Of a stretch of DNA of 64,000 nucleotides, positions 5,319-51,866 are shown one piece after another; position 1 is the stretch's first letter, and each line of letters starts with the position of its first letter. The stretch spans positions 32,001 to 96,000 of the IMG/VR virus record IMGVR_UViG_3300033121_000954, one strand, 5' to 3'. The position numbers and the translations under genes are program-made. The notes under the pieces are model-generated. The model was not told the origin of the DNA, did no database searches, and saw nothing but the letters and a program-made list of their open reading frames with translations. The DNA comes from a virus (Duplodnaviria > Caudoviricetes).

Positions 5319-6989
5319 TTACAGAGTATTAAGACCTTCTACATAGATTTTACCATAATATTCTGGGCGAAGCATACCTTTTGAGTACCTCGTGAGTACC
5401 CCCTTACGCGGAGTGAAGTTGTCGGGGTCTAATACCATCGGAGTCATCATGAGCGGGACATATGGTGCATAAAACGCACCCGTTTCCAACCAGTTACTAC
5501 CTCTAAAGCCCATCAAAATTACATTCTCTTTCATGTAAGGATTTTTCCATACTTGGAAGCGATTGTTAATTTGACCAATTTTCTGAGCGCCCATCGCGAA
5601 GGATGATTTATTACCGTCCGTATCGGCAGCATATCCGGGAATACTTTCCAAAATTGTTGCTACAAGCGGAGAACATACCAAGAAGTTTGCTCCACCACGA
5701 ACAGTTGCTTGGTGAATCCGGTTGCTCATTTTCTGAATCTTTGTACCAATCGTTTGGAACCAAGATTGTTGAGTGTATGCCGTCAAGTTTGCAGTTACTG
5801 GTGAAAATGCGCTTGAACCGTTAAATTCATAACCAATTCGCATTGACCAAGCATCAGTATGTTGTGCATCGTGTGTCAACATGTCCAAAATTTCCAAGTC
5901 AATTTCTTGTGCAATGTATTCGCCCAAAATACCAGTCAATTCAGCCTCTGCGTCAATATTCTGGTATGCGTTCAAATCTTGTGCAAATTCAGGTGTCCAT
6001 TTTGCTTTCAGTTTCCGAGTTTTTGCGACAATCGGGTCACTTCGCAGTTCAAGACTCAATTCTGGAATGTCCAGATTGGCATCAACATTTGAACCTGCCT
6101 GTGTCTTACCTGCTTCAAAATCACCACGAGTAATTGCAGTAGGCTGTTTATGATAGTTTACCACGATTCTATCAGCCGCTGCCAATGCAGAACCAGAAAT
6201 CAAAAATTGAATAGTTCCGGCGGATTTGTTATATTTCGTAAATTCTTGATAAACATCGTACACATATGAGTTTGTAGAATTTGAAAGTGTAAATCCGCGA
6301 ACCCCTACCGGGTCAAAACTTGAAATGGATGAGGTTGAAATCGTAACTTTATGAATAGATGAACCACCAACCAACAAGGATTGGCTAAATTCGCTATTAA
6401 AGTTGTAATCAACTGCACTTACAGAACCTGTAATAAACTGGGTTGAACTTACAGAACTATTAACACCCAATGCAGAACTGGAATAGTCGTTGATTGAATA
6501 ACCAAAACGACCCGGACCATACAGACCTTCTGTCGGAGTTGCCCAACCATAACTGGCAGCCGTCCCTTTATTGGAATCGCTTACACCAAATACACTATCG
6601 TTTTGTGAATCTTTACCAGCACCAGTGTTGAACCCGGGTTGACCAGTACCATATTTAATATCCAGCCAGAATACAAGACCCGAAGGCAGGTTCATCGGCT
6701 GAACACTAACAAATTCTTTTGCACTTACATCTGCAAAAATTCGGCGAATAAGGGGAAGCGCAATACCTGCCCATTCTTCGCTACCTGCCACAGTACCAGT
6801 TTGGTTTGCTTCGGTTACAAGTTGGCGGGCTTGGTTTTCAAGAAGTTGGGCCATATTGCCTTTTTCTGGACCTTGAAGACCTTCCAAAAGACCTGTACGT
6901 TCCCATTTTTTGGTCAACGCTTTTGCTGCATTACGCTGATTCATATATGCGTCTTTTGGCAAAAGGTTACCTAAATTGAAATTACTCAT
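5319..6989 (-). CDS. gp23: Major capsid protein, T4 gp23 family
   Basis: LLENQ, VSVQPMNLPSGLVF, AKTRKLKAKWTPEFAQDLNAY, EIDLEI, GAFYAPYVPL, FTPRKGVLTRY. Confidence 0.97.
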   Translation of the reverse strand: MSNFNLGNLLPKDAYMNQRNAAKALTKKWERTGLLEGLQGPEKGNMAQLLENQARQLVTEANQTGTVAGSEEWAGIALPLIRRIFADVSAKEFVSVQPMNLPSGLVFWLDIKYGTGQPGFNTGAGKDSQNDSVFGVSDSNKGTAASYGWATPTEGLYGPGRFGYSINDYSSSALGVNSSVSSTQFITGSVSAVDYNFNSEFSQSLLVGGSSIHKVTISTSSISSFDPVGVRGFTLSNSTNSYVYDVYQEFTKYNKSAGTIQFLISGSALAAADRIVVNYHKQPTAITRGDFEAGKTQAGSNVDANLDIPELSLELRSDPIVAKTRKLKAKWTPEFAQDLNAYQNIDAEAELTGILGEYIAQEIDLEILDMLTHDAQHTDAWSMRIGYEFNGSSAFSPVTANLTAYTQQSWFQTIGTKIQKMSNRIHQATVRGGANFLVCSPLVATILESIPGYAADTDGNKSSFAMGAQKIGQINNRFQVWKNPYMKENVILMGFRGSNWLETGAFYAPYVPLMMTPMVLDPDNFTPRKGVLTRYSKGMLRPEYYGKIYVEGLNTL

Positions 6990-7025
6990 TTATTCATTTT
7001 CTCCTGTGTTTTTTTGTTTTTTAAA

Positions 7026-7976
7026 TTACCACACAATCGGCTTGATACCAGCCAACTGTTGGAAACGGTTGATTGTCAACCCTTCATTGATATTTTGTTT
7101 TTCGCGATCTGTGCGAGTAGGATTTACTGCACGAACTGGGCGAGAAGATGCACCTTCGGTAATCTTCTTTTTTGCGATTGGCTTTTTATTGAACGATTCG
7201 GCGATAGTCGTATAGACCAATTTGACTTCTCGGACTGAATTACACCGATCAAAACTGTTAAGTACTCGTGTTTGTTGGGCTTCAGTGAGCGGATATTCGC
7301 GCACGGTACGAGTAATGAACATCAGTTTAGCATTGACTAAATTGACCTCGTTAATTGCCTTTTTCAATTCGGTGACTGCTTTGTATGCTTGGTTGTTTTC
7401 TCGGACAAGTTTTGCGTTTTCTTTCCGAAGCCGACGAACTTCTGTGTTCATTGTGCTGGAACTTGGCGAATCGGTGTATGCTCCACCATCATCGTTACAC
7501 TCTTCGTCCAGTTCTTCCATGTCTTCGCCGTCCAACTCATTCATAAGCAGTTCCATCAAATCATCGTCAGTCATGTCGTCGCCTTCATCCATCATTGGCT
7601 CTTCTTCAAAATCTTCGCCTTCCATTGTCATATCTTCTTCCGGAAATTCTTCTTCACCATCACCTTCAAGTTCACGAATCAACGCTTCAAGATTTAATTC
7701 ATCATCTTCTTCAGGTGCTTCATCTTCTTCAGGTGCTGGCTCGTCTTCCCCGTCACCAAAGCCAACGGCTGGTTCATCTTCTACTTCTGGCTCTTCGGTG
7801 TCAAATTCAATGTCGACTTCAAAGTCTTCATCTTCTTCTTGAAGTTTTGTAGAAATCATGCGTTGTAACGATGGTTGGAAGGTTTCTTCCAATGTAATTT
7901 TTGCGTTTGCCATTGCAGTCTTTTTCACTTCTTTTGCATGTGCAATTGCAGAGTTCAATAAATCTAATTTTGCCAT
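7026..7976 (-). CDS. Prohead core scaffold protein (gp22-like)
   Basis: Highly acidic middle, coiled coil, EVNLVNAKL motif, directly upstream of MCP. Confidence 0.8.
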   Translation of the reverse strand: MAKLDLLNSAIAHAKEVKKTAMANAKITLEETFQPSLQRMISTKLQEEDEDFEVDIEFDTEEPEVEDEPAVGFGDGEDEPAPEEDEAPEEDDELNLEALIRELEGDGEEEFPEEDMTMEGEDFEEEPMMDEGDDMTDDDLMELLMNELDGEDMEELDEECNDDGGAYTDSPSSSTMNTEVRRLRKENAKLVRENNQAYKAVTELKKAINEVNLVNAKLMFITRTVREYPLTEAQQTRVLNSFDRCNSVREVKLVYTTIAESFNKKPIAKKKITEGASSRPVRAVNPTRTDREKQNINEGLTINRFQQLAGIKPIVW

Positions 7977-8073
7977 TAATAAATTTCTCCTGGACTTGTA
8001 TAAATCTATTATAAAGATTTAATATAAAGTGGTTAGTTTCGGTATAGGATTGATTATTTGAAATCAATATTTA

Positions 8074-8083
8074 ATATAAATAT
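8074..8083 (-). promoter_or_regulatory. Candidate late promoter ATATTTATAT
   Basis: Intergenic, upstream of scaffold/MCP; an identical 10-mer occurs at 36958-36967. Confidence 0.4.
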
Positions 8084-8086
8084 TAT

Positions 8087-8449
8087 TCATTTTTTAAAAA
8101 CCTGTTTTATCGCCATTTCAATTTTTTTATCCGCCTCCTGTAAGATGCGAATGACTTCAAGCGATAAGTTAGTTTTAATTTCTTCTAATTTGGTTTTCAA
8201 TCCGTCGGTAATTTCTGGCGACGATTGATCTCTGGTTGTTGCCGTGGCCTCATACGCACGAATTAGTTTATCCAACTGTGGCGGGAGTGGTTTCAATTTC
8301 ATTATTTTTGCCTCACCGCCTCCATATAAACTAATCTTCAATTCAACTTGCCCTTCCTTTCCGGGCTTCAGTTCAATCCCATCATTAAATCCCCCATTTG
8401 CGTAGGTTAATTCATATTTTAGGGTTTCATCCTTTTGTGGTTGTGCCAT
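8087..8449 (-). CDS. Hypothetical protein
   Basis: 120 aa, AAGGA 8 nt upstream. Confidence 0.65.
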   Translation of the reverse strand: MAQPQKDETLKYELTYANGGFNDGIELKPGKEGQVELKISLYGGGEAKIMKLKPLPPQLDKLIRAYEATATTRDQSSPEITDGLKTKLEEIKTNLSLEVIRILQEADKKIEMAIKQVFKK

Positions 8450-8675
8450 CTTCCAAATCCTTTACAGATTGTATGTATTTTGCTTTCTCTCGTTGTAATC
8501 GTTTTGTTTTACTAACGGAGTCAAACCAACGTCGCTCATAACATTCAACCATCAAATTTGATTGTTTTGTTTGACGTTTTAGTGTACGAAGTGCAGCAAC
8601 TATGTCGCCATTTACTGCAATTGCGCCGGGTTTGCCGGGAATCATTGACTTGAATTTTTTTGAATCTGGGTGCAT
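8427..8675 (-). CDS. rpsU: Phage-encoded ribosomal protein bS21
   Basis: VNGDIVAALRTLKRQ..E..ERRWF..S..KR..REKAKYIQ fits the bS21 pattern, including the Bacteroidota-like C-terminal KAxYIQ; the location among head genes is typical of phage bS21. Confidence 0.8.
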   Translation of the reverse strand: MHPDSKKFKSMIPGKPGAIAVNGDIVAALRTLKRQTKQSNLMVECYERRWFDSVSKTKRLQREKAKYIQSVKDLEDGTTTKG

Positions 8676-8676
8676 T

Positions 8677-9030
8677 TTAAAATTTAAGATATTCTTCTTC
8701 TTTTAACGTTTTTAAAAAATATTTTGCAAATTCTTTGCGTTCTTCTGGATTTAGTGGTAGATCACCAAACTCTTTTTTATATGCTGGTCGGACATAGAGT
8801 GTAAAATAGTTGCCCAGTGATTTAATTGCGCCAGATTCCTGAAACGTACCTTTGTCAATAAATTTCTGGAGCGACGGAACAAACGTTTTATGCAATATAT
8901 TATATAGCCGTGAGTCATTTTCAGCATACAATATTGCCTCTTTCACGGCATCATGGTCAATAGCAGCCTCGCGGAGTATTTGTTCCACTAATGGACGCAA
9001 TAAAGTTTTAATTCTTTGTGTATTTTTCAT
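8677..9030 (-). CDS. Putative internal head protein (PLVEQILRE leader)
   Basis: Shared leader motif; GAGGT upstream. Confidence 0.6.
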   Translation of the reverse strand: MKNTQRIKTLLRPLVEQILREAAIDHDAVKEAILYAENDSRLYNILHKTFVPSLQKFIDKGTFQESGAIKSLGNYFTLYVRPAYKKEFGDLPLNPEERKEFAKYFLKTLKEEEYLKF

Positions 9031-9032
9031 TT

Positions 9033-9629
9033 TTATACCTCATAATATCTACTTAAACCAACTCCTATGTTTTCATAGCATGATTCAAGTCGTTGTTGTA
9101 AAATGTGCATTTCATTGCAAGTCTTTTCAAACATTTTATAATTTTCTCGGATTGTCTTAAAATCACGATTCATAGAAAGTGAATCAAAGTCAAATCCATT
9201 CTGTGTTTCGTTGATACTGAATCCTTCCGCAGATTCTATCAGCGAACCAACCGTCTTTGCAATTTCTTTCAATTTTTTAGAACGATATATTTCGTTTTTA
9301 AAACTTGAAAATTGCCGGAGTGATTCCAAAAAGGCATTTCGCTCTTCTTTAGAATATTTCAGTTCAGTTTCTATGAGATATTTTTTTAAATCATATTTTC
9401 GCATTTCAGTCAACCCTTTTGATTTAGCAAATGCTTTTGCACCATTTAAACTTGGATGTGATCCCCAGTCTTTAACTACATTGTTATCATTATCAATAAC
9501 ATATAAACTATATTTATCTTCATTTCCCGGATTTCTATGTGAACTTAAATCTCGCTTGGTCACAACAAATTCATTACCACCAGATGCTGGAGCACGGAAT
9601 AAAATTGATTTGTTAAGTATTTTTTTCAT
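9033..9629 (-). CDS. Hypothetical head-module protein
   Basis: ATG 9629 is coupled to the protease stop; internal LTE and LIE sites. Confidence 0.6.
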   Translation of the reverse strand: MKKILNKSILFRAPASGGNEFVVTKRDLSSHRNPGNEDKYSLYVIDNDNNVVKDWGSHPSLNGAKAFAKSKGLTEMRKYDLKKYLIETELKYSKEERNAFLESLRQFSSFKNEIYRSKKLKEIAKTVGSLIESAEGFSINETQNGFDFDSLSMNRDFKTIRENYKMFEKTCNEMHILQQRLESCYENIGVGLSRYYEV

Positions 9630-11353
9630 AGTTTTATGCAACAATTATTTGATAATTCACAAATTATATCTCGTATCAACGAATCAATTTTATTTGGTTG
9701 GGTTGTGGAAGATTTGTAATTTTCCCCAATTATCATATCCGCGTTGTGAGTGGATGGATCACTTACACAATCCGCCAAAGTTAGAAATTCAAAATCATCT
9801 TGTACTTCAACCAAATCATCTCCACCTTCCCGCAATGGAGTTACGCTGCCAAGTCCTCTACTTGATTGCCCAACTCGGTATCCCGCCAACAAAATTTCCT
9901 TTACGATATTACCGGATGGTGTATTAAGGATTTCAACATCACCACGAATTTCGTTTCCTTTCCAGTAAGCATCTTTTATTGCTTGGCAAACATTTTTCAA
10001 CGAAATTACATTTGCGTCATCCGAATTACCCGACCAAAATTGAGAATTCCCATCACGACAATAGATAATTCCATTGTCCACAGTTACACAATGTATTGTT
10101 CCGTTATAATTTACAGGTTCTACTTTTAAATATCTAAAATCAACATAAATTCCTTTAGATTGTTTAACCCATAGGCGATATAGAGGCTGTGTATTTTCTT
10201 TTTTTATAAGTCGTTCGCCAATTTTTCTATCGTTATTATGTTGAATTTTTATAACACCGGCATATCCAATTTTTAATAAAATTTCGTTTAAATCTTCTAT
10301 TAACTTTTTTGAAACAGTAAAAACCGACTTTCGGCGAGAGTAGCCAGTATGAACATCAGAGCCATCTCCTTTCATAAACCATTCAAACAACACTGATAGC
10401 AAACTACTTGATGCAGATTTTATATCTTCTGGAATAAATTTTGTATATTTGTTTCCAAGTGGCTTTAGATAATCGTATAATCGTTTATCAACAATAGAAA
10501 ATATTATATTATTTTTACGTTTTCGCTCTGTCCATTTTATTCCGGGCGACATATTTGACAACACCACGCGAAACTGTTCTGCACGAGCACCCTCATTTTG
10601 AGAAATTAGTATTTCGTAATTTCCGCGATTTTTTGTATTTCTAACACATCCTTCTGCTAAATAAAATCCTAAAAATGCAAAAAATGATTTGCTGTCAAGT
10701 ACTAAATTAGAATATTGGATTTTTCTATTTTCTGTTGTGCCTAAATAATCGGAGGTTCCGTCAATTTCCCACACATCGTGGTCTATTCCATTCCATGTGG
10801 ATGTTATTGGAATGTATCCATTTATAGATTTATTATTTTGACTGGCGGAGTATAATTCTTGAGCAGTGTATGTGACTAAATTTCCAGATGGTATTCTAAT
10901 ATGAAATTTATGATTTCCGGTGACAGTTGTATTAATATTTTTTCCATGTATATTAAACATACTGCCACTGTAATACTGATTCGTAATGGCGCTTGGATAT
11001 TGCCATTCCATATTTCCAGAAGATGGATTTAGTGTCGCAACCAAATCCGTTTCAATTGTGTCTTTTATATATTTCCAACCATTTTTAGTCAATATTTCCG
11101 TATTTTCCCAAAAACAAGTTGGATGGTCCAATTCTGAAAATGCTTTTTTTTCTCGTATTTTTTCAAAATATTCATTCAGTGCTTTATCAAGAATAGACCT
11201 GCTATAAATTCTTTTATTTCGGTTTGGAGTATCTGCGCGTTGCAACAAGACATTTCTAAGAATCAAACGACCGTCGTTACCATTCATTGATTCAATCAAT
11301 GTAGATTTCGGAACTTCAATATTTGAAATATGTTCTATAAGAAGTTGTTTCAT
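9626..11353 (-). CDS. gp21: Prohead protease (T4 gp21 family) containing an intein
   Basis: NRNKRIY, ELDHP, LNTPSG, SSRGLGS, DCVSDPS. Confidence 0.93.
   Translation of the reverse strand: MKQLLIEHISNIEVPKSTLIESMNGNDGRLILRNVLLQRADTPNRNKRIYSRSILDKALNEYFEKIREKKAFSELDHPTCFWENTEILTKNGWKYIKDTIETDLVATLNPSSGNMEWQYPSAITNQYYSGSMFNIHGKNINTTVTGNHKFHIRIPSGNLVTYTAQELYSASQNNKSINGYIPITSTWNGIDHDVWEIDGTSDYLGTTENRKIQYSNLVLDSKSFFAFLGFYLAEGCVRNTKNRGNYEILISQNEGARAEQFRVVLSNMSPGIKWTERKRKNNIIFSIVDKRLYDYLKPLGNKYTKFIPEDIKSASSSLLSVLFEWFMKGDGSDVHTGYSRRKSVFTVSKKLIEDLNEILLKIGYAGVIKIQHNNDRKIGERLIKKENTQPLYRLWVKQSKGIYVDFRYLKVEPVNYNGTIHCVTVDNGIIYCRDGNSQFWSGNSDDANVISLKNVCQAIKDAYWKGNEIRGDVEILNTPSGNIVKEILLAGYRVGQSSRGLGSVTPLREGGDDLVEVQDDFEFLTLADCVSDPSTHNADMIIGENYKSSTTQPNKIDSLIRDIICELSNNCCIKL
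10025..11116 (-). mobile_element. Intein (364 aa) with LAGLIDADG homing endonuclease
   Basis: Starts CFWENTEILTKNGWK; LGFYLAEG and FMKGDG motifs; ends YNGTIHCVTV...WSGN followed by Ser+1. Confidence 0.93.
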
Positions 11354-11583
11354 ATTTTTTTCAAATCCGTGTGAAATTGTTCTTCTAAATCATTCAATCT
11401 GCGTATATATGTATTAAGAAAATATTTCTGGTCAGAATTGATTCCTTTTATATTCCGCATCGTTTCCAGTTTACTAATTGCACCATAAAACAATTCAAAG
11501 AAGTTATCCATTTCATTATCGTAAACTGTGTTTTCGCTCAACATTACTTCCCGTATTATGGTTTTTAGTGACGAGGTATTCAT
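11350..11583 (-). CDS. Putative internal head protein
   Basis: LKTIIREVMLSE leader. Confidence 0.55.
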   Translation of the reverse strand: MNTSSLKTIIREVMLSENTVYDNEMDNFFELFYGAISKLETMRNIKGINSDQKYFLNTYIRRLNDLEEQFHTDLKKI

Positions 11584-12053
11584 ACGTTCATCTCCCTAAT
11601 TTTATTTGATAATCTTAGCAGTCGTTCATTGATTTTAGTAAAATTGCGTAAAGTTCCTTTCCAGAATACTGTTTGATCCGCACCACTCTCAACTTTTAAC
11701 CGACTTGCATGATTTATCATCTGTTCAACTTCACGAAGTTTCGCATTTATCTGGATGATATGTTCGTTTATTTTAGTTCTTTCGGTTTTACTATCATCTC
11801 GTTTAAAATCTTTATAGTTTATTTCCGAAACTCTTGTATAAATATCATCTATTTGTTTAAAAAACCTATCCGTTAAATTTATAGGCTCCGTATAAGCGCC
11901 ATCGTCTTCTGGTTCAACAACTTTTTTATTAAATGCGTATGGTGTCTGTGGTTGCCCTTCTCCACCATCCAAATTACTTGTGGTGTTGTCTTCATCAATG
12001 GGAGAGAACCGCTCATTTAACTGCTCAATGATTGCCTTGAGGGAACTATTCAT
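11580..12053 (-). CDS. Hypothetical head-module protein
   Basis: LKAIIEQLNE leader; NLDGGEG..TPYAF. Confidence 0.65.
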   Translation of the reverse strand: MNSSLKAIIEQLNERFSPIDEDNTTSNLDGGEGQPQTPYAFNKKVVEPEDDGAYTEPINLTDRFFKQIDDIYTRVSEINYKDFKRDDSKTERTKINEHIIQINAKLREVEQMINHASRLKVESGADQTVFWKGTLRNFTKINERLLRLSNKIREMNV

Positions 12054-12871
12054 TTTTGTATTTCCTCAATTAGTTCATAATATTTCAACATTCCACTCAA
12101 ATGTTCATCTTTAATGTGTTTTGCTGAAATGATGGTTTCGGTTAAATTTATTGCTTCTCTCAATTTAATTTTAGTCACATCATCATGCGTTTCATCTAAA
12201 TACGAGTTAATCTTGCTGACGATGTATTGAACCTCACTCATAATATACGATTTAAATTCCGTAGAATTATCATCTTCATTTATATATAAAGATAACAGTT
12301 TTTTCTGCCTCTGGTTCAATTGCTTATATCTATCGTTAAATTGCTCCACGATGTATCTAAACGTCAATCTACGCACATCCCCATCTTGTTCTCTCAATGC
12401 CCGCTCAATTTCAACATCTGTATTATCCACATCAACATTACCACTCAACTGTTCAGTTATGAATTTTTTACAATTCAAGTAATCAACTGGGTCGTTTACA
12501 TCTTCAAATAATTTATAAATTGAAGTTACCAGTTTGTAATTACTCAATCGCGATTCAAAAAATACCTTCAAGTCATAATGTTTTTTTAATGACTTTATCA
12601 GTTCGTATTTTTCGTGTTGCAATTTTTGCTCATTCAATCCTTTCCGACTCTGTATTGTCAATTCAATCAATTCCGCTGGATTGTGTTCTGACTTCATCAG
12701 CAATGCCTGATAGAGTTTAAGTTCTTTTAACAGTTCCGAGTCAGATTTGAAATATTTTTTGATGATCATCAACGCTGTTTGCTTAGGCGATGACCCAATT
12801 ACCTCGTGCATTACCGAACGAGATAATAATTCAAATAAAATACCAGTATTTTTAAATTTTTTATGCTTCAT
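12050..12871 (-). CDS. Conserved hypothetical protein downstream of portal
   Basis: KFKNTGILFELL N-terminus, 273 aa. Confidence 0.7.
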   Translation of the reverse strand: MKHKKFKNTGILFELLSRSVMHEVIGSSPKQTALMIIKKYFKSDSELLKELKLYQALLMKSEHNPAELIELTIQSRKGLNEQKLQHEKYELIKSLKKHYDLKVFFESRLSNYKLVTSIYKLFEDVNDPVDYLNCKKFITEQLSGNVDVDNTDVEIERALREQDGDVRRLTFRYIVEQFNDRYKQLNQRQKKLLSLYINEDDNSTEFKSYIMSEVQYIVSKINSYLDETHDDVTKIKLREAINLTETIISAKHIKDEHLSGMLKYYELIEEIQK

Positions 12872-14666
12872 TTATAACCTCGTCGTCAAATAGTTGATCT
12901 TCGCTTAATATATGTGCGGTTGGATTTCTTTTATTGAGCATTTTTAAAATTCGTTTGACTGATTCTGATTTAGCCATTTCCTTCCTTCCAGCCGGGTCAC
13001 TTCCAAAATCTTTATCTCTCGCAGTTTCAAACGAACTGGTGTGTTGATCGGGTCTTGCATTATTCACTCGTTCATCGGGTGTATAAAGTTTCTTTAAATC
13101 CTGTCCGTCCGTTGCTCTAAATTTGCTCGCTACTTGCATGGATGCAATGTCAAAAGGAGTACCCAATACCTTCCCAGTTTCTTGTGGATCATTGCCTTCA
13201 TCCTCAATTTGTTTTAACCGCAGCGCAAACTTTTTATCTTCAATAATTCGGTCAAGTTCTGCCTTCCAAACATCTTCAGTCAATCCAAATATATTTTCAT
13301 ATATATATTTGTTTGAAAATAAATTGTTTTCTTTGATACTTGCTACTAAATCCACTTTGGCAACCAGCACATCCGTCTTTTGTCGCTCAAATACTAAGGA
13401 TGGGTTGGTTAAAAATATCTCAAAATCAATTAGTTGTTCATCTTTAATGCCGTGAGTTTTTAGATGGATAATTGCAATTTTATACAGTTCAGAAACAAAT
13501 ATTTTTTGCAGTCGTTCAATAGTCCGTGCAAATCTCAAATCTAAACTGGCCAATCCAGATTTCGCGCTTCCTTCACCATCAGCACCGCCATATCCAAGAT
13601 ATTCTTTTGGAACTTTCAACCCAGCAAGTAATTTATTTTTCAGATATTCAACATCATCCAATTGTCCAGTGTTTTCAAGACCGGGCAATGTTTCAATCGT
13701 TGTTCCACTATCCCCACCTCTAACTGGCAAATAAATGTCTTCCATTTGCGACATCAGCGAAAATTTCACATTGTAATCGCCAGTGTTTGGATCAATATAT
13801 GGAGTTTTTTTAGTTTCTTGAATTATCTGCTCAACATGTGCATCAATTGCCGAGGGCGGCAAATTCCCAACATCAATTTTAAATAACCGACGTTCCGGAG
13901 AGCGCATGATTCTATGTAAAATCATCGCATCTTCCATCATCAGCAATGCTTTAAATGTCTTTCTACTGGAGTCAATGATAGATCGTCCGTATGGCAAAAA
14001 CATTTGATCGCCCATCAAACGAAAATGTGCTATTTCGTAGGCTTCAAAGTAGTTTTTACTTCTAAAATTATATTCTCCCTCATAACGAAATCTGGTTCTG
14101 GTTGGATCCTCCACAGTTCCTTCCTCTCTTATCATTAGACTTGGGTGGATTGGTACAACGTTCACAACCCCAAACTCCTCATCCAATTGCAAATACAAAA
14201 ACGCATCACCGTATTTACACATTGTCCTAATCCAACTCCACATATTAAATTCAATATTCAATATGTCGTAAAACAAATTATGTAGTAATTTTCTGATTTC
14301 ATCGTTTTCAGTTTTAATTACCAACAATTCGCCATCAATTGAAAGAGTCGTGGATTCCTCTGCATAAATATCTAAAACGCTGGAAATGATGTCGTTTGTG
14401 TCCATCATCTCATAATCCATATACATTGTACGACGTTGTGCTTCAATCTCTTCGTTTGTAAAACCACTACCATAACCAGTTACACCTGTGGTTGATCTAC
14501 CAGTCCGCCAACGTCCATTACCAGCAAGTGTGGATTGTGTTGTGCCCATTTGCTGCGATTTATTTACATCGTATGCTTTTAGACGACCGCCGGGCAATCG
14601 TTTTACAATAACATTTCGCGTAAATAATTTTGATAATATCTCTCTGTATGTACTCATAACAGCCAT
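12861..14666 (-). CDS. gp20: Portal protein, T4 gp20 family
   Basis: LPYGRS, MEDAMILHRIMRSPERRLFKIDVGN, EDIYLPVRGG, IETLPG, LKVPK. Confidence 0.95.
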   Translation of the reverse strand: MAVMSTYREILSKLFTRNVIVKRLPGGRLKAYDVNKSQQMGTTQSTLAGNGRWRTGRSTTGVTGYGSGFTNEEIEAQRRTMYMDYEMMDTNDIISSVLDIYAEESTTLSIDGELLVIKTENDEIRKLLHNLFYDILNIEFNMWSWIRTMCKYGDAFLYLQLDEEFGVVNVVPIHPSLMIREEGTVEDPTRTRFRYEGEYNFRSKNYFEAYEIAHFRLMGDQMFLPYGRSIIDSSRKTFKALLMMEDAMILHRIMRSPERRLFKIDVGNLPPSAIDAHVEQIIQETKKTPYIDPNTGDYNVKFSLMSQMEDIYLPVRGGDSGTTIETLPGLENTGQLDDVEYLKNKLLAGLKVPKEYLGYGGADGEGSAKSGLASLDLRFARTIERLQKIFVSELYKIAIIHLKTHGIKDEQLIDFEIFLTNPSLVFERQKTDVLVAKVDLVASIKENNLFSNKYIYENIFGLTEDVWKAELDRIIEDKKFALRLKQIEDEGNDPQETGKVLGTPFDIASMQVASKFRATDGQDLKKLYTPDERVNNARPDQHTSSFETARDKDFGSDPAGRKEMAKSESVKRILKMLNKRNPTAHILSEDQLFDDEVINEA

Positions 14667-16249
14667 TTTATACTTTCAGTCTGTGCTCTGACTGGCATTT
14701 CCCATTGTGGATTACTTGTCATTTTTGGACTATAAACTGAACGATGAATATTTTGGACAGATTTCTGTGTTAATTCCAACCCAACCTGATACATTCTAAG
14801 TGCAGTTTCACGAACAAATAATGCGATAGCAAAAGACATAATCAAATCATCATTGTATCCGCGAGCCGCTTGCGGTTTACCATTGATCCATTTAAACACA
14901 GTAACTTCGTTCATTAATCGTTTTGAATATACCCTTGGCAATTTCTGTCGCATATAAGTACCAAACATATCAAGCATGACTGGTCTGTTTTGTGGAGTAA
15001 TTGTAATTCCGGGTACTGTGTCTTCTTTATTTTTCAAATCGTAGTTTTTTCTGATGTGTATATCAGTGTCAAAATATGGATCATTTTTATACCCATAAAA
15101 CAAATTTTTATATCCACTATCAACTATAACTTGAATGGTTGACCAACCAATATTTTTATTGTCCAATACCAGTCTGGCATTGTTGTATTCAGTTGCGATG
15201 GAAATTAAGATATTTCCAAAAACATTTGTATCAACCTTTTCACGAAATTCGGCCACTTGCTCCATCGTTTCTAATTCAAAAACATGGAATGCCGAAAAGT
15301 CTTCACCATCCCCACGAGCAACATCCGCACTGACAATATAACTTTTGTTGTAGAGTGGGTATTTCCATATCCATAAATTGCCGCCAATTCCTCTACGCTC
15401 AACTGGGTCTTTTACCGAATTATCATTATAGTATTGGATAATTTCAGAATCAATATAAGTATGCCCAGAAGTTAAGAATTCAACATCACATTCCTGTGCA
15501 GCCTTCAGTTTTCCAAGTTGTTCATCCTGTAAATCACGCCAAGCCTGATCCCGTTCCGGATGTAAACTCCACGGTAATGATATTGGATTAAATCTACCAA
15601 GTCCGCCAGCCGCAGTTCCTTCAATTGCTTGCTGCCACAGTTGATGAAAGGTATTTCCACTTCCATTTGGCGAACTTAATAACACTGCTTTTCCGCCAGT
15701 AGCCAATGTCAGTTGGGCAGAAGTCCAAATTTCCTCCATACAATCAATGTGCGCCGCTTCATCAATTATCAATTTTGAAAGTGCTTCCGACCTACCAGCA
15801 TCCGGCGAACTTGAGACGGCTTTAATTGACGAGCCGTTGGCAAAAACTAAACTTAATTTATTATCATTTACAATCTTTCCTTTCAAGAAATTTGGAAGAA
15901 ATTCGTGCATCAATTGTACTTTTTCAACCAAATTTCGGGCAACGTCTTGTTTTGTCGCAATTACCAGTATTTTGTAATCACTATTGAACAACATACAATG
16001 AAGGGCATCCATCGCACAAAGCGTTGAAATGCCCATTTGTCGGCCCTTGCCGATTATATTGAACCGATGTTCTTTAAATGCCCTAAGTGTGTCTTCTTGA
16101 AATGGAAATAGATTGAATAAAATTTTACCCTTTATAGGATGCTGTATTTTGCAATACTTTTTGGCAAAATATACAGGGTCAACCGCACAACGTAGGAACT
16201 CCTGTTGTAACGCTTTTTTTATACTTTCTGTTTCTGGTTGTTTTGGAAT
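14654..16249 (-). CDS. gp17: Terminase large subunit (gp17 family), probable ATT start
   Basis: The frame is open 72 codons upstream of ATG 16036 and encodes DPVYF..YCKIQHP..PFQ..KGRQMGIST; also IIDEAAHI, SSPNG, ADVARG, DDLIMS. Confidence 0.93.
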   Translation of the reverse strand: MPKQPETESIKKALQQEFLRCAVDPVYFAKKYCKIQHPIKGKILFNLFPFQEDTLRAFKEHRFNIIGKGRQMGISTLCAMDALHCMLFNSDYKILVIATKQDVARNLVEKVQLMHEFLPNFLKGKIVNDNKLSLVFANGSSIKAVSSSPDAGRSEALSKLIIDEAAHIDCMEEIWTSAQLTLATGGKAVLLSSPNGSGNTFHQLWQQAIEGTAAGGLGRFNPISLPWSLHPERDQAWRDLQDEQLGKLKAAQECDVEFLTSGHTYIDSEIIQYYNDNSVKDPVERRGIGGNLWIWKYPLYNKSYIVSADVARGDGEDFSAFHVFELETMEQVAEFREKVDTNVFGNILISIATEYNNARLVLDNKNIGWSTIQVIVDSGYKNLFYGYKNDPYFDTDIHIRKNYDLKNKEDTVPGITITPQNRPVMLDMFGTYMRQKLPRVYSKRLMNEVTVFKWINGKPQAARGYNDDLIMSFAIALFVRETALRMYQVGLELTQKSVQNIHRSVYSPKMTSNPQWEMPVRAQTESIKWLL

Positions 16250-16252
16250 TAG

Positions 16253-16888
16253 TTATTTCTCCGTCGTAAATCGCTCAAGTGTTTTGTCTTTAAATTCTTG
16301 ATACGAGTTATCTATTTTTTGTAAATACGCATCCACATCATCAAATGTCCATTTCTCCACATCTCCAAATTCATTATCCACAAATCCCAAGTTTTTTAAT
16401 TCTCGCTTAATTACTTCCACTTCTTTGTCAGCATCTCTGAAAAATGCGTCTGCATTTGCTTTCATTTTGTTCAGCGCGTATTCATTAAATTCGCCCCTAA
16501 TTTTAAGTTTAGTTTCAAGCGAAATTAAACAGTCTTCACACATTCCAGTCATTCTCCGAAATTTCTCATCCAATCGTGTTGGAGATTTACAAGTACATGT
16601 TTCCTTTTGGCAATTTGGGAACGACCGCATGGATTCTCTCAATTCATCCAATGCGACTGATACACTCGGATGAAATCGGTATTTGGAACGAGTATGTTTA
16701 TTTTGTTGCCACCAACACACTGTTTCGCCAAGGGCATTTACTTCTTCCCATATTTCGCCCTCTTCTCGGGTTTTATTTTTTTCCGCTTGATATTCAGCAT
16801 CGCTAAATCCGAAAGTTTTTCTGGATTGGGTTCTGTGCTCGCCCTTGAGCATTTCATTAAGGGCTTTTACATTTTTTAGTTTAGACAT
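16253..16888 (-). CDS. Cys-containing hypothetical protein upstream of terminase
   Basis: 211 aa; CQKETCTC and CEDC. Confidence 0.7.
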   Translation of the reverse strand: MSKLKNVKALNEMLKGEHRTQSRKTFGFSDAEYQAEKNKTREEGEIWEEVNALGETVCWWQQNKHTRSKYRFHPSVSVALDELRESMRSFPNCQKETCTCKSPTRLDEKFRRMTGMCEDCLISLETKLKIRGEFNEYALNKMKANADAFFRDADKEVEVIKRELKNLGFVDNEFGDVEKWTFDDVDAYLQKIDNSYQEFKDKTLERFTTEK

Positions 16889-17123
16889 TATTATCTTGTT
16901 GTGTTACGAAATCTACAAATCGTTCATCTGGAATACCCAACAACGAAGCAAATTGTTTAATTGCTTTGAATTTATCAGTTGGTCGGTAAATATTCCGAAG
17001 CAAACTACCCATGTCTGGATTGTTTTTTATCTGTTGCATCAATAAAACTGAATTTGCAGATGCTTCTGGGGTGGGGGTTTCTAACTCCTCTTTTATCTGT
17101 TGGTACAATGGCATTAGTTTCAT
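16881..17123 (-). CDS. Putative internal head protein
   Basis: MKLMPLYQQIKE leader; GAGGA upstream. Confidence 0.55.
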   Translation of the reverse strand: MKLMPLYQQIKEELETPTPEASANSVLLMQQIKNNPDMGSLLRNIYRPTDKFKAIKQFASLLGIPDERFVDFVTQQDNNV

Positions 17124-17146
17124 ATAAATTTCCTCATATACTATAA

Positions 17147-24300: not shown

Positions 24301-24493
24301 AGCGGGTTGTAACTGCGATCATTTCCGGAGACATATCAGTTTTGTTATGGACTATATCTCCACCAAGAAAAATTATGTCGTCTGGTTGTTTGGTTGATTG
24401 TATGTAATCGTAAACTCGCTGGAAAACTGCTTCGTATTCTTTATGTCTTTTATACAAACGAATATGGATGTCGCTCAAATGATAGATTTTCAA
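21386..24493 (-). CDS. Fused Mre11/SbcD nuclease and Rad50/SbcC ATPase (gp47+gp46)
   Basis: SDIH, GDIVH, GNHD, GDVH; Walker A NATGKSS; Zn hook CQYC; signature SSGME; Walker B LAIDEG. Confidence 0.92.
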   Translation of the reverse strand: MKIYHLSDIHIRLYKRHKEYEAVFQRVYDYIQSTKQPDDIIFLGGDIVHNKTDMSPEMIAVTTRFLRTCADICPTILIPGNHDGNCSNLQRLDALTPIVEALNHPNLYFWKDSGVYELNGISFSVFGIFDSIENWVSANKINAKYKIALHHGTITGAMTDIGHEIETGITLEHFNGFDLGMCGDVHLCQFLNRERTIAYSSSLIGQSYGESVDEHGLIVWDLETNQGTFVPIQNDYGFVTFNLISGKCIIPDNLPKNLRVRIQHDNSTPEEIEAFVREIGKSYNIVELIKQRLNGTQLQNRTKYETLGHSRNIDFQNKIISEFLTAMELGTKNEIDAVCKLNSETNKLLPVNSSQRNVIWKPIKLEFSNMFSYGEDNVVDFSKLNESYGIWAKNATGKSSFLSILTFALFDKTPVASKASHILNNTKDSFQCKIQFELNGRDYFIERVGTKKKDGAVKVDVTFWTINEFGDIVNLNGEDRDRTNYQIRNYVGTYDDFVLTALSTQYDNQNFIDKTQRDRKELLYKFLDITVYDDLYKIAKEESKECQVLIKEFERENLQSKLSVYNTQIQDQQYQLDDIERQITTVKRDIKVKSDELVELNKIYQPTSNTLNLNQIDSEIASTQKQIEQCNSQFETNAEQIEKYNTEISEIAEKIKNEPDNFETVIEQLNKLKSTIDASGTKLKLLMRELIECKNQETLLHNHKYDPSCQYCIDNEFVKTAKNSISKISDIERSIAKISSEIETSELQYADVKIQLAEAKKIRDLVNKRRQLFTDLNLLKEQQKTLEYKQKSNNVALDGYKISREEYLKNAEIIERNTQILLEITKIRTEIDALDKSEIALLNNYRSLHSTLDALKTKHEECNNKVDKYLQYVNRFRIYDLYLQSLSREGVPYRILETVLPVIESEVNQILNNLVDFTVRLEATDDKYIHGYIVYNASNSWPVELSSGMERFILSLAFRTSLSEITTLPKANFLAIDEGFGVLDSENLLSIANLFTYLKKQYEFLICVSHMDSMKDMVDNQIKIEKINGYSRIVV

Positions 24494-24511
24494 TGGTTTA
24501 TTTGGGTTTTA

Positions 24512-25423: not shown

Positions 25424-25429
25424 AAACCA

Positions 25430-25481
25430 CAAGTATAAGGCTTTTTATTGGTTTATGCAAATCATTAACATATCGTTTACA
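25430..25481 (-). promoter_or_regulatory. Bacteroidota-type promoter with TGTTAA repeat, driving primase and SbcCD
   Basis: TGTAAA-N5-TGTTAATGA-TTTG-N20-TATACTTG. Confidence 0.75.
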
Positions 25482-26990: not shown

Positions 26991-27016
26991 TTTTTAGATT
27001 TCCTTTGTTTTTAATT

Positions 27017-39900: not shown

Positions 39901-40689
39901 TTTATCAATTATTTTTTGACTGGTAAGTGCATCACTATCAAGCAGTTCGTCCCAATTTTTAAACGAAGTTGGACTACTTGAATATAGACTGACATCAATA
40001 TCAAAATTAGGGCCACGGAGGACATTTACTGCACCACTACCAACTTTTGTAGTCAGTATGACCGTATCAACGTATGGATCAATTACTTCATACTGGAACC
40101 AAGCCTTGCTGCGATTTGTTATATCGTCGTAAATGGGCTGATACAATTTTACATAAAATGTATCATTTTCAAACCTGATATTTACGATTTTTTGTAACTG
40201 ATTGAATCCAAAATTTACAACAAGATTATTTAAAATTTGCTGTTGACGAAACTTTGCAATTTGCTGTTGAAATTGATCGTATCCGTTGCTAATTATTTTG
40301 AATTGTATTTCTGTCCTGTCTGGTGAAATTTCCTGCACCAGCACAGATTCATCGTTCAAATTGCCCCAAACATTTTGTAAAACATTCAGGACGACTACAT
40401 AACTACCACGATTTATATTTGCTGCTTTGAATACACCACCAATATCAGTTAATAGACTGTTGGTTGTTTTTTCGTGACGTGTATAACCAGCATTATGATT
40501 TCCACTTACATAATCTCCATAAAACGAATAAATGTGGAGTTCTGTAACTTGGTTTTTTATTATATTTGGATCTGATGGAATTAAGATTTGATCGTTTAGA
40601 ACTGACAAATCCTCCAGTCGGTACAATTGTCCAACTGAAGGTTCGTTTAGATTTAAAATTTGTTCTTTGTTAAAATAACGATCTAACAG
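36988..40689 (-). CDS. Large baseplate or tail structural protein (wedge-like), probable CTG start
   Basis: LLKTKGT..YGIP motif; frame is open upstream of TTG 40626 to CTG 40689, with GAGGA 7 nt before it. Confidence 0.7.
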   Translation of the reverse strand: MLDRYFNKEQILNLNEPSVGQLYRLEDLSVLNDQILIPSDPNIIKNQVTELHIYSFYGDYVSGNHNAGYTRHEKTTNSLLTDIGGVFKAANINRGSYVVVLNVLQNVWGNLNDESVLVQEISPDRTEIQFKIISNGYDQFQQQIAKFRQQQILNNLVVNFGFNQLQKIVNIRFENDTFYVKLYQPIYDDITNRSKAWFQYEVIDPYVDTVILTTKVGSGAVNVLRGPNFDIDVSLYSSSPTSFKNWDELLDSDALTSQKIIDKALSGSGTINLNIDYTSFDNFIFYSSAVERAKNYHYKVSKLEEYSSSVAILLSSTASNTPFISSSIDLNTRRMDQITTNFDPWERWLYYHPTSSIFTHDFTGSLTPHPKRLVSGKWANYTISSSIVQNWYNTLLYSASEYDKDNVNRLYWSIPEHIYMEPGNSNLVLFVDMLGQHFDTIYSYVKAHTQIHERDEHPERGTPSELLYPLAKSYGWQLQNTRQLSNLAKYKLGTDRTGSFAQTGTLFSQREEMQTHQIWKRIVNNLPFLLKTKGTPRSLKALMSIYGIPQTLLSIREYGGTSPSNGLPSLIEDRFQYALNFSGSQYVKLPRRRIPASSGSYYSGSTRVPDTIEFRFRTNYSSSVSMSLWGIENNVTSGVNLLELVHITASQSTPKYSGSYAYGYLRYSGHTVNAFGTDIQVKKQSEPLPLFDNDFWTVQIKTLSPITLTNNTLEWIYINVKRQSDSLYGRITHTGSIAFSGSRMRNSWGNFSSYDAGGTHYVILGGTTGSSTIPSPISANRFVGQMQGYKEWYEVINTSSFDQHVLNPAAYHGNDPTSSFNTLFRYFPLGLDQQRWDHSVYQLVSSSQPNRRASLDTTASFVGFTGSQSEQYKSSVETYYVTPPTLGGNVLRSDKIRLEDTALLRDLSPTNRSTVGAFDKASFDSNRLAVVFSPTEHVDRDIYNHTGFAELDDYIGDPEYVYESEYGELKQFAYHYFKKYQQANNINDLIEILSAYDYTFFEQIKQLVPGRADLVAGILIEPTVLERSKVQAFRRPQIENPQYDMDVAGIQPTTDAEVQQIESSASYSPKIASRYNYITGSVPYTVFATGSSLSHFNTSSKQLTMDVDTIPTRYSGSQSPTQSYIDGTRLNCCYKKVIFHYSASGQFATKYEKQWYTAVSKSYGMYYSKSLECGSYQNYECSSRFMGSKLEGPAFNVNSNQTADGGPVVTIWESDPNKLSVNDSPLGGGIRVE

Positions 40690-40700
40690 ATCATATTCCT

Positions 40701-40934
40701 CTATTTATTCAAATACCAATGCGAAAGTTCTAAATCTTTCCATTGTTTATAATCATAATTACTCAATACAATCAGTGTAGTATTAGTGTTTTCCACATTC
40801 ACTACTTGAGCAAATCGCATTAAATCAGCAATGGCCTTTTTATATTCAGCAAATGCGTATGCTTCAATCAATTGTTCAGTTGCATCTGGAAATTCAGCAT
40901 GCCGTTGAATAATATTTTTCGGCGTAATATTCAT
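40701..40934 (-). CDS. Hypothetical protein
   Basis: 77 aa ORF. Confidence 0.5.
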   Translation of the reverse strand: MNITPKNIIQRHAEFPDATEQLIEAYAFAEYKKAIADLMRFAQVVNVENTNTTLIVLSNYDYKQWKDLELSHWYLNK

Positions 40935-44464: not shown

Positions 44465-44474
44465 TTATAATTCC

Positions 44475-46340: not shown

Positions 46341-46349
46341 TTATCGTTC

Positions 46350-48006: not shown

Positions 48007-48008
48007 AT

Positions 48009-48887: not shown

Positions 48888-48907
48888 GTGTTGTAAATTT
48901 TATACAA

Positions 48908-48959
48908 CAAAGGTAATCACATTTTAAATACCGTACAAATCATTAACACATCGTTAAAT
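48908..48959 (-). promoter_or_regulatory. Bacteroidota-type promoter with TGTTAA repeat
   Basis: TTTAA-N5-TGTTAATGA-TTTG-N20-TACCTTTG. Confidence 0.8.
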
Positions 48960-49688: not shown

Positions 49689-49689
49689 A

Positions 49690-50760: not shown

Positions 50761-50762
50761 GA

Positions 50763-51143
50763 CTAAAAATCGCTTGCTTGACCCGGTTGCATTTGTTCTC
50801 TAATTCCCCGTAACAATTCTTGCTTTTGATCATCACTCAATCCTTCAGTAAGTCCTGCATCATCATTGAATTTGCCGGGTTTCTTTTGCTGCATTCGTTG
50901 CACGATCATAGCAAGTTTCAACAAATGTTCATCATTTTGTATTGCAGTCTGCTGTAACTGAATGAGTAATGGCATTACTGTCACAACATCTTGGACGGTT
51001 GTCAATACACGCCCAACCTGTTCCGCTGTCGCCATTATATTTGCGGCTTTGGTTTCGTTGTTTTTGTATATTTTTTTAAACAGCCGTTCAAGTGTAATTA
51101 TTTCTTGATTGTCGTCTGTAAATAATACAATATCTTTGTTCAT
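50763..51143 (-). CDS. Hypothetical helical protein
   Basis: 126 aa; GAGGA upstream. Confidence 0.6.
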   Translation of the reverse strand: MNKDIVLFTDDNQEIITLERLFKKIYKNNETKAANIMATAEQVGRVLTTVQDVVTVMPLLIQLQQTAIQNDEHLLKLAMIVQRMQQKKPGKFNDDAGLTEGLSDDQKQELLRGIREQMQPGQASDF

Positions 51144-51866
51144 TTAGTTTTTCCTCGGTGGATATTTATGCCAATTCAACGTCCCATTTTCCAGATAATC
51201 TTTATACATCATTTTCTGGATGGGCTTTAGTGCATTCACTACATCAGTAATCGTTTGCGTTTTTACGTTCACTTGCTCGCGGATTAAAATGTAGAGAGCC
51301 TTTTTGTTATAAATATCAATCACATCGCATTTTGCAAATAAATCAAAAATGGCGTTCAAAATTTGTTTATCTTTATTCCCAAACGGAGTTAATCTGTCTC
51401 CCCGATCAAAATAAAAATGGTCTAAATTTGAGTTTCCCCAAACAGACCATTTTTGACAAAAATCTCGCAAATCTTCTCTATAATCTTGCAATGTGATTTC
51501 GTTCATTATGTCACGTTGGGTATCCACCTCATCCAATTGTGCCTTTTCAGTTGTCTCATCATTAACTCGTTTCATATTTGCAAATACCCAGTGGATTGCT
51601 ACACGGTTGAAATAGGAAAACGCCTTGTATCCTTTGGATGGATCAAATTTTGACAATCGGTCGTGCAAATGAACAACGCAATCGTGCTTTATATTTGAAT
51701 ATTCTTCATCTCCGTAATTGTAAAATTTTCGGTTGTGAATGACATTTTCGGCAAGTTTATTTAATGCCGGATAGATTAAAGTATTGAACAATTGGGTTTT
51801 TTTGATTGCATCGTCGCAATTGATATATTCTACAATTGCAGTTTCTTGTGGTTTTCCGAAGTACAT
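51144..51866 (-). CDS. Late sigma factor (gp55-like, sigma70 region 2)
   Basis: KLAENVIH.., KFDPSKG.KAFSYF. Confidence 0.75.
   Translation of the reverse strand: MYFGKPQETAIVEYINCDDAIKKTQLFNTLIYPALNKLAENVIHNRKFYNYGDEEYSNIKHDCVVHLHDRLSKFDPSKGYKAFSYFNRVAIHWVFANMKRVNDETTEKAQLDEVDTQRDIMNEITLQDYREDLRDFCQKWSVWGNSNLDHFYFDRGDRLTPFGNKDKQILNAIFDLFAKCDVIDIYNKKALYILIREQVNVKTQTITDVVNALKPIQKMMYKDYLENGTLNWHKYPPRKN

Follow-up and report, generated by a model that had tools for sequence, protein, structure and literature searches.

Ribosomes of the Bacteroidota sequester the anti-Shine-Dalgarno (anti-SD) sequence, and its release through changes in bS21 has been described (PMC7797042, PMC9976891, PMC13000457). 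In the autoregulation of Flavobacterium johnsoniae rpsU (PMC7797042, PMC9976891, PMC13000457, PMC13000453), as in the reading proposed below, the status of bS21 controls access to the anti-SD, and the SD acts as a regulatory element in a cell that is otherwise SD-blind. bS21 is also the ribosomal protein that phages carry most often, although what has been published on its purpose consists of proposals that phage mRNA is favoured, with the mark that would distinguish such mRNA left unspecified. In the freshwater Bacteroidetes myoviruses of Chen 2022 (PMC9723584) the bS21 gene lies beside the terminase, portal, protease and capsid genes, the host belongs to the Bacteroidota, an aromatic residue is kept at the position of Tyr54 and a late takeover of the ribosome was proposed; phage SD use was not analysed there, and the phage protein was concluded to block the anti-SD as that of the host does.

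The phage considered here, of which a stretch of 64,000 nucleotides (the window) was analysed, is T4-like and shares the aromatic residue, the probable Bacteroidota host and a bS21 gene in the terminase-portal-protease-capsid region, and a late ribosome takeover is proposed for it as well. However, whereas bS21 is on the opposite strand in the myoviruses of Chen 2022, it lies here inside the head operon, on the same strand as the structural genes, as it does in all the homologs detected. A search of the literature, in which subscription journals are thinly covered, turned up no description of late genes led by SDs in phages with bS21.

SD motifs and non-AUG starts on virion genes

An SD motif was defined as AGGA, GGAG, GAGG or AGGT situated 5-11 nt 5' of the start codon; the genes and sites given below are on the minus strand. 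The gene for the major capsid protein (Gp23 family, 5319-6989) is preceded by AGGAG at 7001-7005, a motif found ahead of the capsid gene in 53/58 loci with bS21 vs 9/49 without, and that for an acidic scaffold-like protein (7026-7976) by AGGAG at 7987-7991. Between 8087 and 51143 further SD-led head, tail and baseplate starts, among them baseplate wedge genes identified by PHROG, are found at 8449, 9030, 11583, 12053, 12871, 17123, 21386, 26289, 26990, 30235, 32144, 34576, 35288, 41197, 41734, 44464, 46340, 46823, 48006, 48521 and 51143. The sequence-only reading had named 24 SD-led starts, all 24 of which carry the motif, but it overlooked that at 21386; the motif is absent, as it had stated, from all 11 listed early-type leaders plus the bS21 leader (8675). 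An A10 run interrupts ORF 26990, which becomes continuous with 26932 only if the frame is shifted by 1 nt. The caveat raised for 41197, that it has both an SD and a host-type promoter, is correct but minor: the ATG follows the end of the -7 box by 11 nt, so that the transcript would begin within the SD.

With gene calls made blind to the SD, i.e., with starts picked without inspecting the SD zone, the motif precedes 21/50 genes of 5319-51866 vs 2/26 in the rest of the window (Fisher p=0.0017), and with curated starts 25/50 (p=0.0003). The enrichment on which the earlier proposal depended is therefore present. That the pattern reflects chance, biased picking of starts or overlap with upstream stop codons would have some appeal, as four 4-mers over a 10-nt zone are permissive, some starts had been picked by their SD and TAA, TAG or TGA lies inside many of the sites; it is, however, ruled out by the controls. 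Besides the SD-blind calls, shuffled leaders gave a mean of 4.2 motif genes against the 21 observed (p<=0.0005), internal in-frame ATGs carried the motif in only 19/244 cases, the tail tube/sheath module, which lies beyond the window, repeated the result out of sample (12/21 genes SD-led; shuffled mean 1.7), the motif shows a sharp peak 6-11 nt from the start and SDs are depleted in relatives lacking bS21. Enrichment is unaffected by intergenic distance, and the equal rate behind long gaps likewise rules out translational coupling or stop-codon overlap as its source. The SD-led virion genes are thus confirmed as an observation. Approximately half of the genes in the virion region are SD-led, the portal, prohead protease and several tail genes having no SD, and the region 5319-51866 also includes replication genes (primase, SbcCD); over the whole phage genome the SD-led share is 25%.

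The sites are complementary to the 16S 3' tail ACCUCCUUUU, as read from a Lewinellaceae metagenome-assembled genome (MAG), and the enriched 4-mers are substrings of AAGGAGG together with the G-U wobble variants AGGG and GGGA, while TGGA is not enriched; the wobble variants and the independence of distance fit what base-pairing predicts. Computed pairing is weak (median -6.1 kcal/mol), no phage site being as strong as -13 kcal/mol. A GGA-rich motif could instead be bound by a protein, either the extension of bS21 or another RNA-binding product of the phage (an activator, nuclease or repressor). AGGA-only and GGAG-only sites both sit at 7 nt, a register shift below that predicted by strict pairing, and enrichment is just twofold for AGGT and absent for GGTG; moreover, the N-terminal extension of the phage bS21 is basic and RNA binding by such extensions has been proposed earlier (PMC7162821). 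We nevertheless consider a protein reader distinctly unlikely given the wobble variants, the position of AGGT-only sites nearer the start than AGGA-only sites (p=0.009) and a spacing that matches that of the host rpsU SD.

Two of the listed starts are non-AUG, and homologs back both. The terminase large subunit (14654-16249; PHROG terminase) begins at ATT, as judged from the N-termini of homologs, with GGAG at 16259-16262, 9 nt ahead, and a non-AUG start with an SD recurs at this gene in loci L001, L005, L007 and probably L003. A 1233-aa baseplate-region protein (36988-40689), the ortholog of gp162 of the Flavobacterium phage immuto, begins at CTG with GAGGA at 40697-40701, 7 nt ahead; 7/7 relatives begin at CTG or ATT after an SD. 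As this pairing is kept among close relatives on two core genes, despite differing upstream reading frames, the SD sites are probably functional.

Host lineage and promoters

The host is probably a member of the Bacteroidia, most likely of the Saprospiraceae, because the phage carries a mobile island common to MAGs of this family as well as TAnnTTTG promoters. The island (57577-64000), which is of the IS1595 type and comprises a terminal repeat, an amidohydrolase, a restriction-modification enzyme and a frameshifted transposase, shares 85% amino-acid identity and a 28-nt identical terminal repeat with Saprospiraceae/Lewinellaceae; it is a clue to the host and lies outside the proposed mechanism. 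Only one terminal repeat is present in the phage genome and the junction, when sought in other assemblies, was not found, so a chimeric join is possible; at a distance of 60 kb there is another gene related to this element. A CRISPR search of window positions 1-20000 against 301 genomes of the family gave 14 short matches, of which the 12 inspected included none within an array, and hence no spacer for that part of the window. Promoters of the Bacteroidia type (TTG-N20-TAnnTTTG) stand at 603-633, 3146-3177 and 48908-48938, before the SD-less genes 577, 3125 and 48887, respectively.

A host that uses SDs genome-wide had been named as an outcome that would overturn the proposal, yet genomes of the likely host lineage are SD-less except for rpsU, with motifs on 4-9% of genes, which equals background, and the 76 ORFs around ribosomal protein operons yielding 2 motif calls. 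Were the host instead a normal SD user, e.g., one of the Ignavibacteria or Rhodothermia, strongly expressed late genes would simply have SDs and bS21 would be a passenger. The host of the window phage has not been isolated, the share of SD genes in Ignavibacteria (~32%; PMC10783764) is near the 25% of the phage genome, and a cultured relative, Mel-JY01 (PP395634), was deposited with Microcystis as its host, an assignment at odds with the TAnnTTTG promoters that Mel-JY01 carries. We regard an SD-using host as very unlikely: the island ties the phage to an SD-less lineage, 13 of the genes behind its 14 host-type promoters are SD-less, and in the related Rhodothermus phage RM378 the pattern is reversed, with SDs on 7/15 replication genes and 0/7 virion genes and one TAnnTTTG-type promoter.

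Co-occurrence of SDs and bS21 among related phages

Across related head loci, 484/943 genes (51%) are SD-led where bS21 is present vs 83/781 (11%) where it is absent, although p-values from such pooling count related phages as independent and so exaggerate the significance. With classes of ortholog taken from the annotation of immuto, the difference lies in virion genes (62/105 SD-led in genomes with bS21, 7/120 without) as opposed to replication genes (5/44 and 4/94). A split by TAnnTTTG alone was not significant; when a -33 TTG was required and the contrast drawn with TATTTAT, a criterion chosen after the first result was known, it became so, with SDs on 55/93 genes after the TATTTAT motif vs 5/43 host-promoter genes in genomes with bS21. 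In genomes lacking bS21 they occur on 4/113 genes after the motif. In the window a candidate late promoter, ATATTTAT, lies at 8076-8083, 5' of the scaffold and capsid genes; this position, and the enrichment of the motif, with a strand bias, in the leaders of both groups of phages, suggest a late-promoter function.

The clade that is sister to the window's own (L022) has neither trait (SD 1/20). On the capsid tree the bS21 state changes only 4 times, with 2 independent pairs on supported branches; the association thus comprises only 2-4 independent phylogenetic contrasts, too few for a tree test to reach significance. There are also exceptions. A complete 297-kb phage without bS21 has AGGA ahead of its capsid and protease genes (8% SD overall), clades without bS21 retain AAGGA near the scaffold start, L247/G475 has bS21 yet only 12% SD, and in Mel-JY01 SDs precede 4/9 replication genes as well as bS21 itself.

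The phage bS21 and a proposed mechanism

The phage bS21 (82 aa; 8427-8675) scores 27.2 bits against PF01165, above the cut-off of 27, as do nine close homologs, and its best sequence match in the PDB is the bS21 of F. johnsoniae. A word-index protein search returned only the protein itself, tblastn against cultured phages gave one weak match, and Foldseek found no significant match with a predicted model (pLDDT 74, pTM 0.35; helices 25-39, 41-47 and 54-79). A branch separates the phage copies from 33 copies of the order Chitinophagales, and the phage copies share an N-terminal extension of 8-30 residues; that of the window protein, in place of a host-like N-terminus and first helix, is of 15 aa and basic. 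Residues 12-39 have a net charge of +3 vs a host median of +8, while a higher C-terminal basicity was discarded, the net +4 equalling the host median. Tyr67-Ile68 align with Tyr54-Ile55 of F. johnsoniae, the contacts with the 16S tail being kept; these equivalents, which Chen 2022 took as a sign of host-like blocking, count against the mechanism proposed here. Loss of Tyr54 was rejected as the route of release, since Tyr67 is kept and SD use is 49% with Tyr54 vs 53% without; the window genome shows that such loss cannot be the general mechanism. The A-rich bS21 leader is SD-less, as in 37/40 homologs, a mirror image of host rpsU, which has AAGGAG. The place of the phage gene in the operon suggests late co-expression with the capsid genes.

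We propose, with a probability of roughly 0.55, that the phage bS21 replaces that of the host and frees the 16S tail, whereupon short SDs boost the virion genes. The host 30S subunit would conceal the anti-SD, and early and replication genes would rely on host-style A-rich leaders; bS21, transcribed alongside the head genes and SD-less in its leader, would be made by unmodified ribosomes, displace host bS21 and stay bound, leaving the 16S tail accessible at its 3' end. Short sites of the AAGGAG family, placed 6-8 nt before the start and pairing at ~-6 kcal/mol, would then strengthen initiation, with the gain going to abundant virion proteins and weak ATT or CTG starts being tolerated on low-copy ones. 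As no site reaches -13 kcal/mol and the 13-bp rpsU helix excludes bS21 (PMC13000457), short sites fit a ribosome that holds bS21. In the window's clade the unlocking part may be the basic N-terminal extension or an altered first helix. That the extension, and not loss of Tyr54, makes a Bacteroidia ribosome that is blind to SDs read them, giving a specialised ribosome of viral making with a private late code, which includes the non-AUG starts of the terminase and a baseplate gene that ribosomes in the host state would read poorly, is a tentative and rather doubtful refinement. Timing, ribosome incorporation, release of the anti-SD and the role of the extension are inferred. Against the mechanism, translation in F. 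johnsoniae hardly responded to a weak AGGA site even when bS21 was truncated or depleted (PMC9976891). The bS21-linked switch of the sequence-only reading agrees with the SD-enriched virion genes, the SD-less Bacteroidia host, the SD-less bS21 gene in a late operon and the co-occurrence of the two traits; the word "switch", however, is too strong, because half of the late genes have no SD and yet need to be translated, and the effect would rather be a bias on top of host-style initiation.

The anti-SD might also be freed by other means: host bS21 or bS18 could be lost during infection, the phage could supply a protease or a modifying enzyme, or the natural bS21-free subpopulation could be used, with phage bS21 doing a companion job in SD-less late translation or in damping host rpsU autoregulation. 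SD use does not depend on Tyr54, which is kept, phages lacking bS21 still have AGGA ahead of capsid or scaffold genes, wild-type F. johnsoniae has a sizeable bS21-free population (PMC13000457) and bS21 helps SD-less initiation (PMC9976891, PMC13000457). However, bS21-free ribosomes answer only to strong SDs (PMC9976891) and the phage sites are weak, and broad SD use without bS21 is almost never seen; we therefore consider this explanation unlikely.

Replacement of host bS21 by the phage protein names both a mark (short SD sites, which host mRNAs avoid) and a target (the sequestered anti-SD), and offers a testable, if unproven, reason for phage-borne bS21. SDs combined with ATT or CTG starts make sensitive reporters. 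If true, the proposal would clearly exemplify ribosomes specialised by a virus, and it might serve as a tool for orthogonal translation in Bacteroidota.

Compared with the described systems, the window phage differs from F. johnsoniae rpsU, a single host gene whose extended SD (< -13 kcal/mol) is read by ribosomes lacking bS21, in having dozens of short SDs and a bS21 gene that is itself SD-less, with no extended SD. The Flavobacterium phage vB_FspM_immuto_2-6A (Immutovirus) has the same T4-like architecture, a capsid protein 51% identical and a TATTTAT leader motif; unlike the window phage it lacks bS21, carries SDs on 3% of its genes and 2/38 virion genes, and starts its terminase at ATG. 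Mel-JY01, with a capsid protein 56% identical, RpsU annotated in the head module and SD-led virion genes, differs in having SDs on 41% of its genes, the replication and bS21 genes mentioned above among them, and a bS21 without Tyr54, and provides a cultured relative of the window phage.

Shine-Dalgarno motifs and the starts they precede

Every Shine-Dalgarno (SD) motif listed in the sequence-only reading was found at its position and, as that reading claimed, the listed early leaders and the leader of the phage bS21 gene carry none. To avoid circularity, gene calling combined a codon model with start scoring blind to positions -5 and upstream, and motifs were scored 4-13 nt from the start. A motif precedes 21/50 genes within window 5319-51866 as opposed to 2/26 elsewhere in the window (p=0.0017); both of the latter belong to a mobile island, where one of them is a spurious start within a broken transposase. 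The late-gene enrichment that had been proposed was confirmed against shuffled leaders (21 observed, 4.2 in shuffles). The internal-ATG control gave 19/244. The tail module, which the sequence-only reading did not cover, is SD-led at 12/21 genes (1.7 in shuffles) and the remainder of the genome at 10/96 (4.7). Motif positions peak 6-11 nt from the start.

Among 692 genes of bS21-bearing loci the top enriched leader 4-mers are AGGA, GGAG, AAGG, GAGA, GAGG, AGGG and GGGA, with no enrichment of TGGA or GGTG, and this set is the complement of the distal 16S tail CUCCUU, G-U wobble allowed; that the motif is instead read by a protein seems improbable. Enrichment is equal for overlapping genes and for gaps >60 nt, and a stop-codon effect as its source is therefore ruled out. 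Pairing at these sites is weak, with a window median of -6.1 kcal/mol, and none at -13 kcal/mol occurs in the pooled set.

Function is best indicated by the pairing of SDs with poor start codons. Terminase, whose conserved N-terminus has no usable ATG nearby, starts at ATT behind GGAG; the starts in related phage loci are ATA (L001), CTG (L005), ATT (L007) and probably ATC or ATT (L003), each SD-preceded, and the upstream gene encodes different residues across the SD site among relatives. A 1233-aa baseplate-region gene starts at CTG, and in 7/7 relatives its homolog has an SD-preceded CTG or ATT start. As terminase starts at ATG in bS21-less relatives and in more distant bS21 phages, the non-AUG trait is confined to the window's clade. 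In many bacteria infC starts at AUU, so a non-AUG start alone is no proof of SD dependence. Further possible ATT starts, each preceded by an SD-like motif and located upstream of an ATG that has no SD, are at window 36348 (-) and, in whole-contig (G000) coordinates, 21927 and 27190 (-).

Many unrelated SD-led proteins have in common an N-terminal leader resembling K-L-K-P-L-L-x-E, which may serve in capsid targeting (window 9030, 17123, 26289, 30235, 32144, 34576, 41197, 41734, 48006 and 48521; G000 14858, 15696 and 19820); matches to the pattern are SD-led in 10/13 cases, and at 36946 and 49721 the leader occurs but no SD precedes it. The gene directly upstream of bS21 (window 8677-9030) varies among strains with identical bS21 (L182-L187 compared), being 117 aa, 89 aa or broken; the cassette varies, its SD does not.

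Genome setting and likely host

The viral contig (127,036 nt, 36% GC), of which the window takes up bases 32001-96000, is without terminal repeats. Baseplate genes and a head module of T4-like type (capsid of the Gp23 family, prohead protease, portal, terminase) lie in the window, and the tail tube and sheath genes outside it. Capsid identity to the closest cultured relatives is 56% for Mel-JY01, 51% for Flavobacterium phage immuto and 35% for Rhodothermus phage RM378. The protease (window 9626-11353, -) is interrupted by an intein that contains a LAGLIDADG endonuclease, an insert absent from most relatives, although L055 seemingly has one. At window 26714-26990 (-) the frame shifts after codon 9 in an A10 run, through assembly error, slippage or pseudogene formation; the joined N-terminus resembles the gene at G000 14592-14858. 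Also seen were a fragmented phoH and a PP2C phosphatase adjoining a kinase (G000 22301-24656 and 24754-27154, -), and an RNA repair set of two RNA ligases, a polyA-polymerase-family enzyme and RlaP (G000 5578-6540 and 109688-113854).

TTG-N-TAnnTTTG promoters lead 14 genes in the genome. Although Microcystis is the deposited host of Mel-JY01 (L058, PP395634), that phage has a core of the Bacteroidota-phage kind and about 24 TAnnTTTG leaders, and its host label may be wrong. A clue to Saprospiraceae as host group comes from an IS1595-type mobile island (window 57577-64000, on to about G000 96134, one terminal repeat) containing an N-formylglutamate amidohydrolase, an Eco57I-type restriction-modification enzyme and a frameshifted transposase (62313-62831, 62828-63304). 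The nearest copies of the transposase, at 85% identity, are in Lewinellaceae and Saprospiraceae MAGs, which have a 28-nt identical terminal repeat and passenger genes in common with the island. No CRISPR spacer against window 1-20000 was found in 301 family genomes. The 16S tail is canonical in the Lewinellaceae MAG; in 240 kb from three Lewinellaceae/Saprospiraceae genomes the frequency of SD motifs (4-9%) is that of the background, and r-protein operons are essentially SD-free. There rpsU alone bears an SD (AAGGAG, -8 to -10 kcal/mol), so that the autoregulated gene in this family relies on a short site like those of the phage. A host that itself uses SDs is a very unlikely explanation, weakened by RM378, whose layout in Rhodothermus is reversed (SD on 7/15 replication vs 0/7 virion genes).

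Association with phage bS21 and gene class

Over 107 capsid loci, 484/943 genes are SD-led with bS21 and 83/781 without; for the capsid gene alone the counts are 53/58 and 9/49, respectively. A whole-record search found bS21 absent from immuto and several 137-297 kb contigs, the other records being mostly fragments. In the capsid tree, bS21 and the SD-led pattern are both missing from the clade that is sister to the window's own, and from two other lineages among bS21 phages. The bS21 state changes only four times and the independent-pairs test is powerless; no independent pair on this tree runs in the opposite direction. Exceptions exist: a complete 297-kb phage without bS21 has AGGA before its capsid and protease genes, L247 has few SDs and bS21 in a different position, and the SDs of Mel-JY01 extend onto replication genes. 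Release of the anti-SD by a route other than bS21 is, in our estimation, rather unlikely. In bS21-less phages AAGGA also occurs 0-6 nt before the scaffold (L029-L054) or capsid (L277-L308) start, closer than typical SD spacing. Two bS21 matches fall within one genome in G094 and G425 (Chitinophagales order), reflecting a paralog or binning contamination.

With ortholog classes taken solely from the immuto GenBank annotation, SDs precede 62/105 virion and 5/44 replication or metabolism genes in bS21-bearing genomes, 7/120 and 4/94 in bS21-less genomes, and 9/17 and 0/6 in the studied genome itself. In bS21-bearing genomes SDs follow the candidate late motif TATTTAT in 55/93 cases and full host promoters in 5/43; we infer the label "late" from gene function and motif. 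The candidate late promoter ATATTTAT, on the sense strand of leaders (window 8076, 36960; G000 5182, 14572, 24671), matches the T4 late promoter in reverse complement and is enriched in leaders of bS21-bearing and bS21-less relatives alike.

No SD precedes the phage bS21 gene in 37/40 homologs, while half of its neighbours are SD-led, as would be expected if bS21 must be made before the anti-SD is freed; this is the mirror image of the SD-bearing host rpsU. In marine relatives (L235, L239, L246, L257, L267, L274, L289, L299, L306) the 60 nt before the gene contain a hairpin (ACACCTATC...GATAGGTGT) and then a T run, just after TATTTATA, which may be terminator-like or regulatory.

A candidate role for phage bS21

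The ORF at window 8427-8675 is bS21 (PF01165), its best solved relative being that of F. johnsoniae. In Bacteroidia the 16S tail is held by bS21, bS18 and bS6, with Tyr54 stacked on A1534 (PMC7797042); bS21 loss or truncation frees the tail, yet only strong SDs benefit and AGGA is virtually inert (PMC9976891), and a 13-bp rpsU helix excludes bS21 (PMC13000457). The window's bS21 retains Tyr54 and Ile55. Among 62 phage copies position 54 is Tyr or Phe in 35 and another residue in 27, and SD use is equal with and without them (244/494 vs 226/426), so loss of the tyrosine is rejected as a general cause. All 40 representative copies are extended at the N-terminus by 8-30 residues, in which an IPG-like motif is usually present, and are less basic in the region of the first helix. 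We give somewhat better than even odds (roughly 0.55) to a mechanism in which phage bS21 would bind in place of host bS21 and disturb the tail pocket from its N-terminal side. The ribosome would then be in an E. coli-like state, its 16S tail free although bS21 is bound, and in that state short sites would count.

The SD pattern is real and conserved and, as far as we found, unpublished: our literature search returned no late-gene SD contrast in bS21 phages. A causal role of bS21 in it is a plausible candidate and directly testable. Watson et al. (2020) compared phage S21 with consensus binding sites genome-wide and saw no clear link, and McNutt et al. (2023) speculated on bS21 exchange. Chen et al. 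(2022) described a late-expressed phage bS21, phage SD use being outside their analysis, and read its conserved tyrosine as host-like blocking. The studied genome adds to this a kept tyrosine, non-AUG starts that are conserved, and a clue to a Saprospiraceae host.
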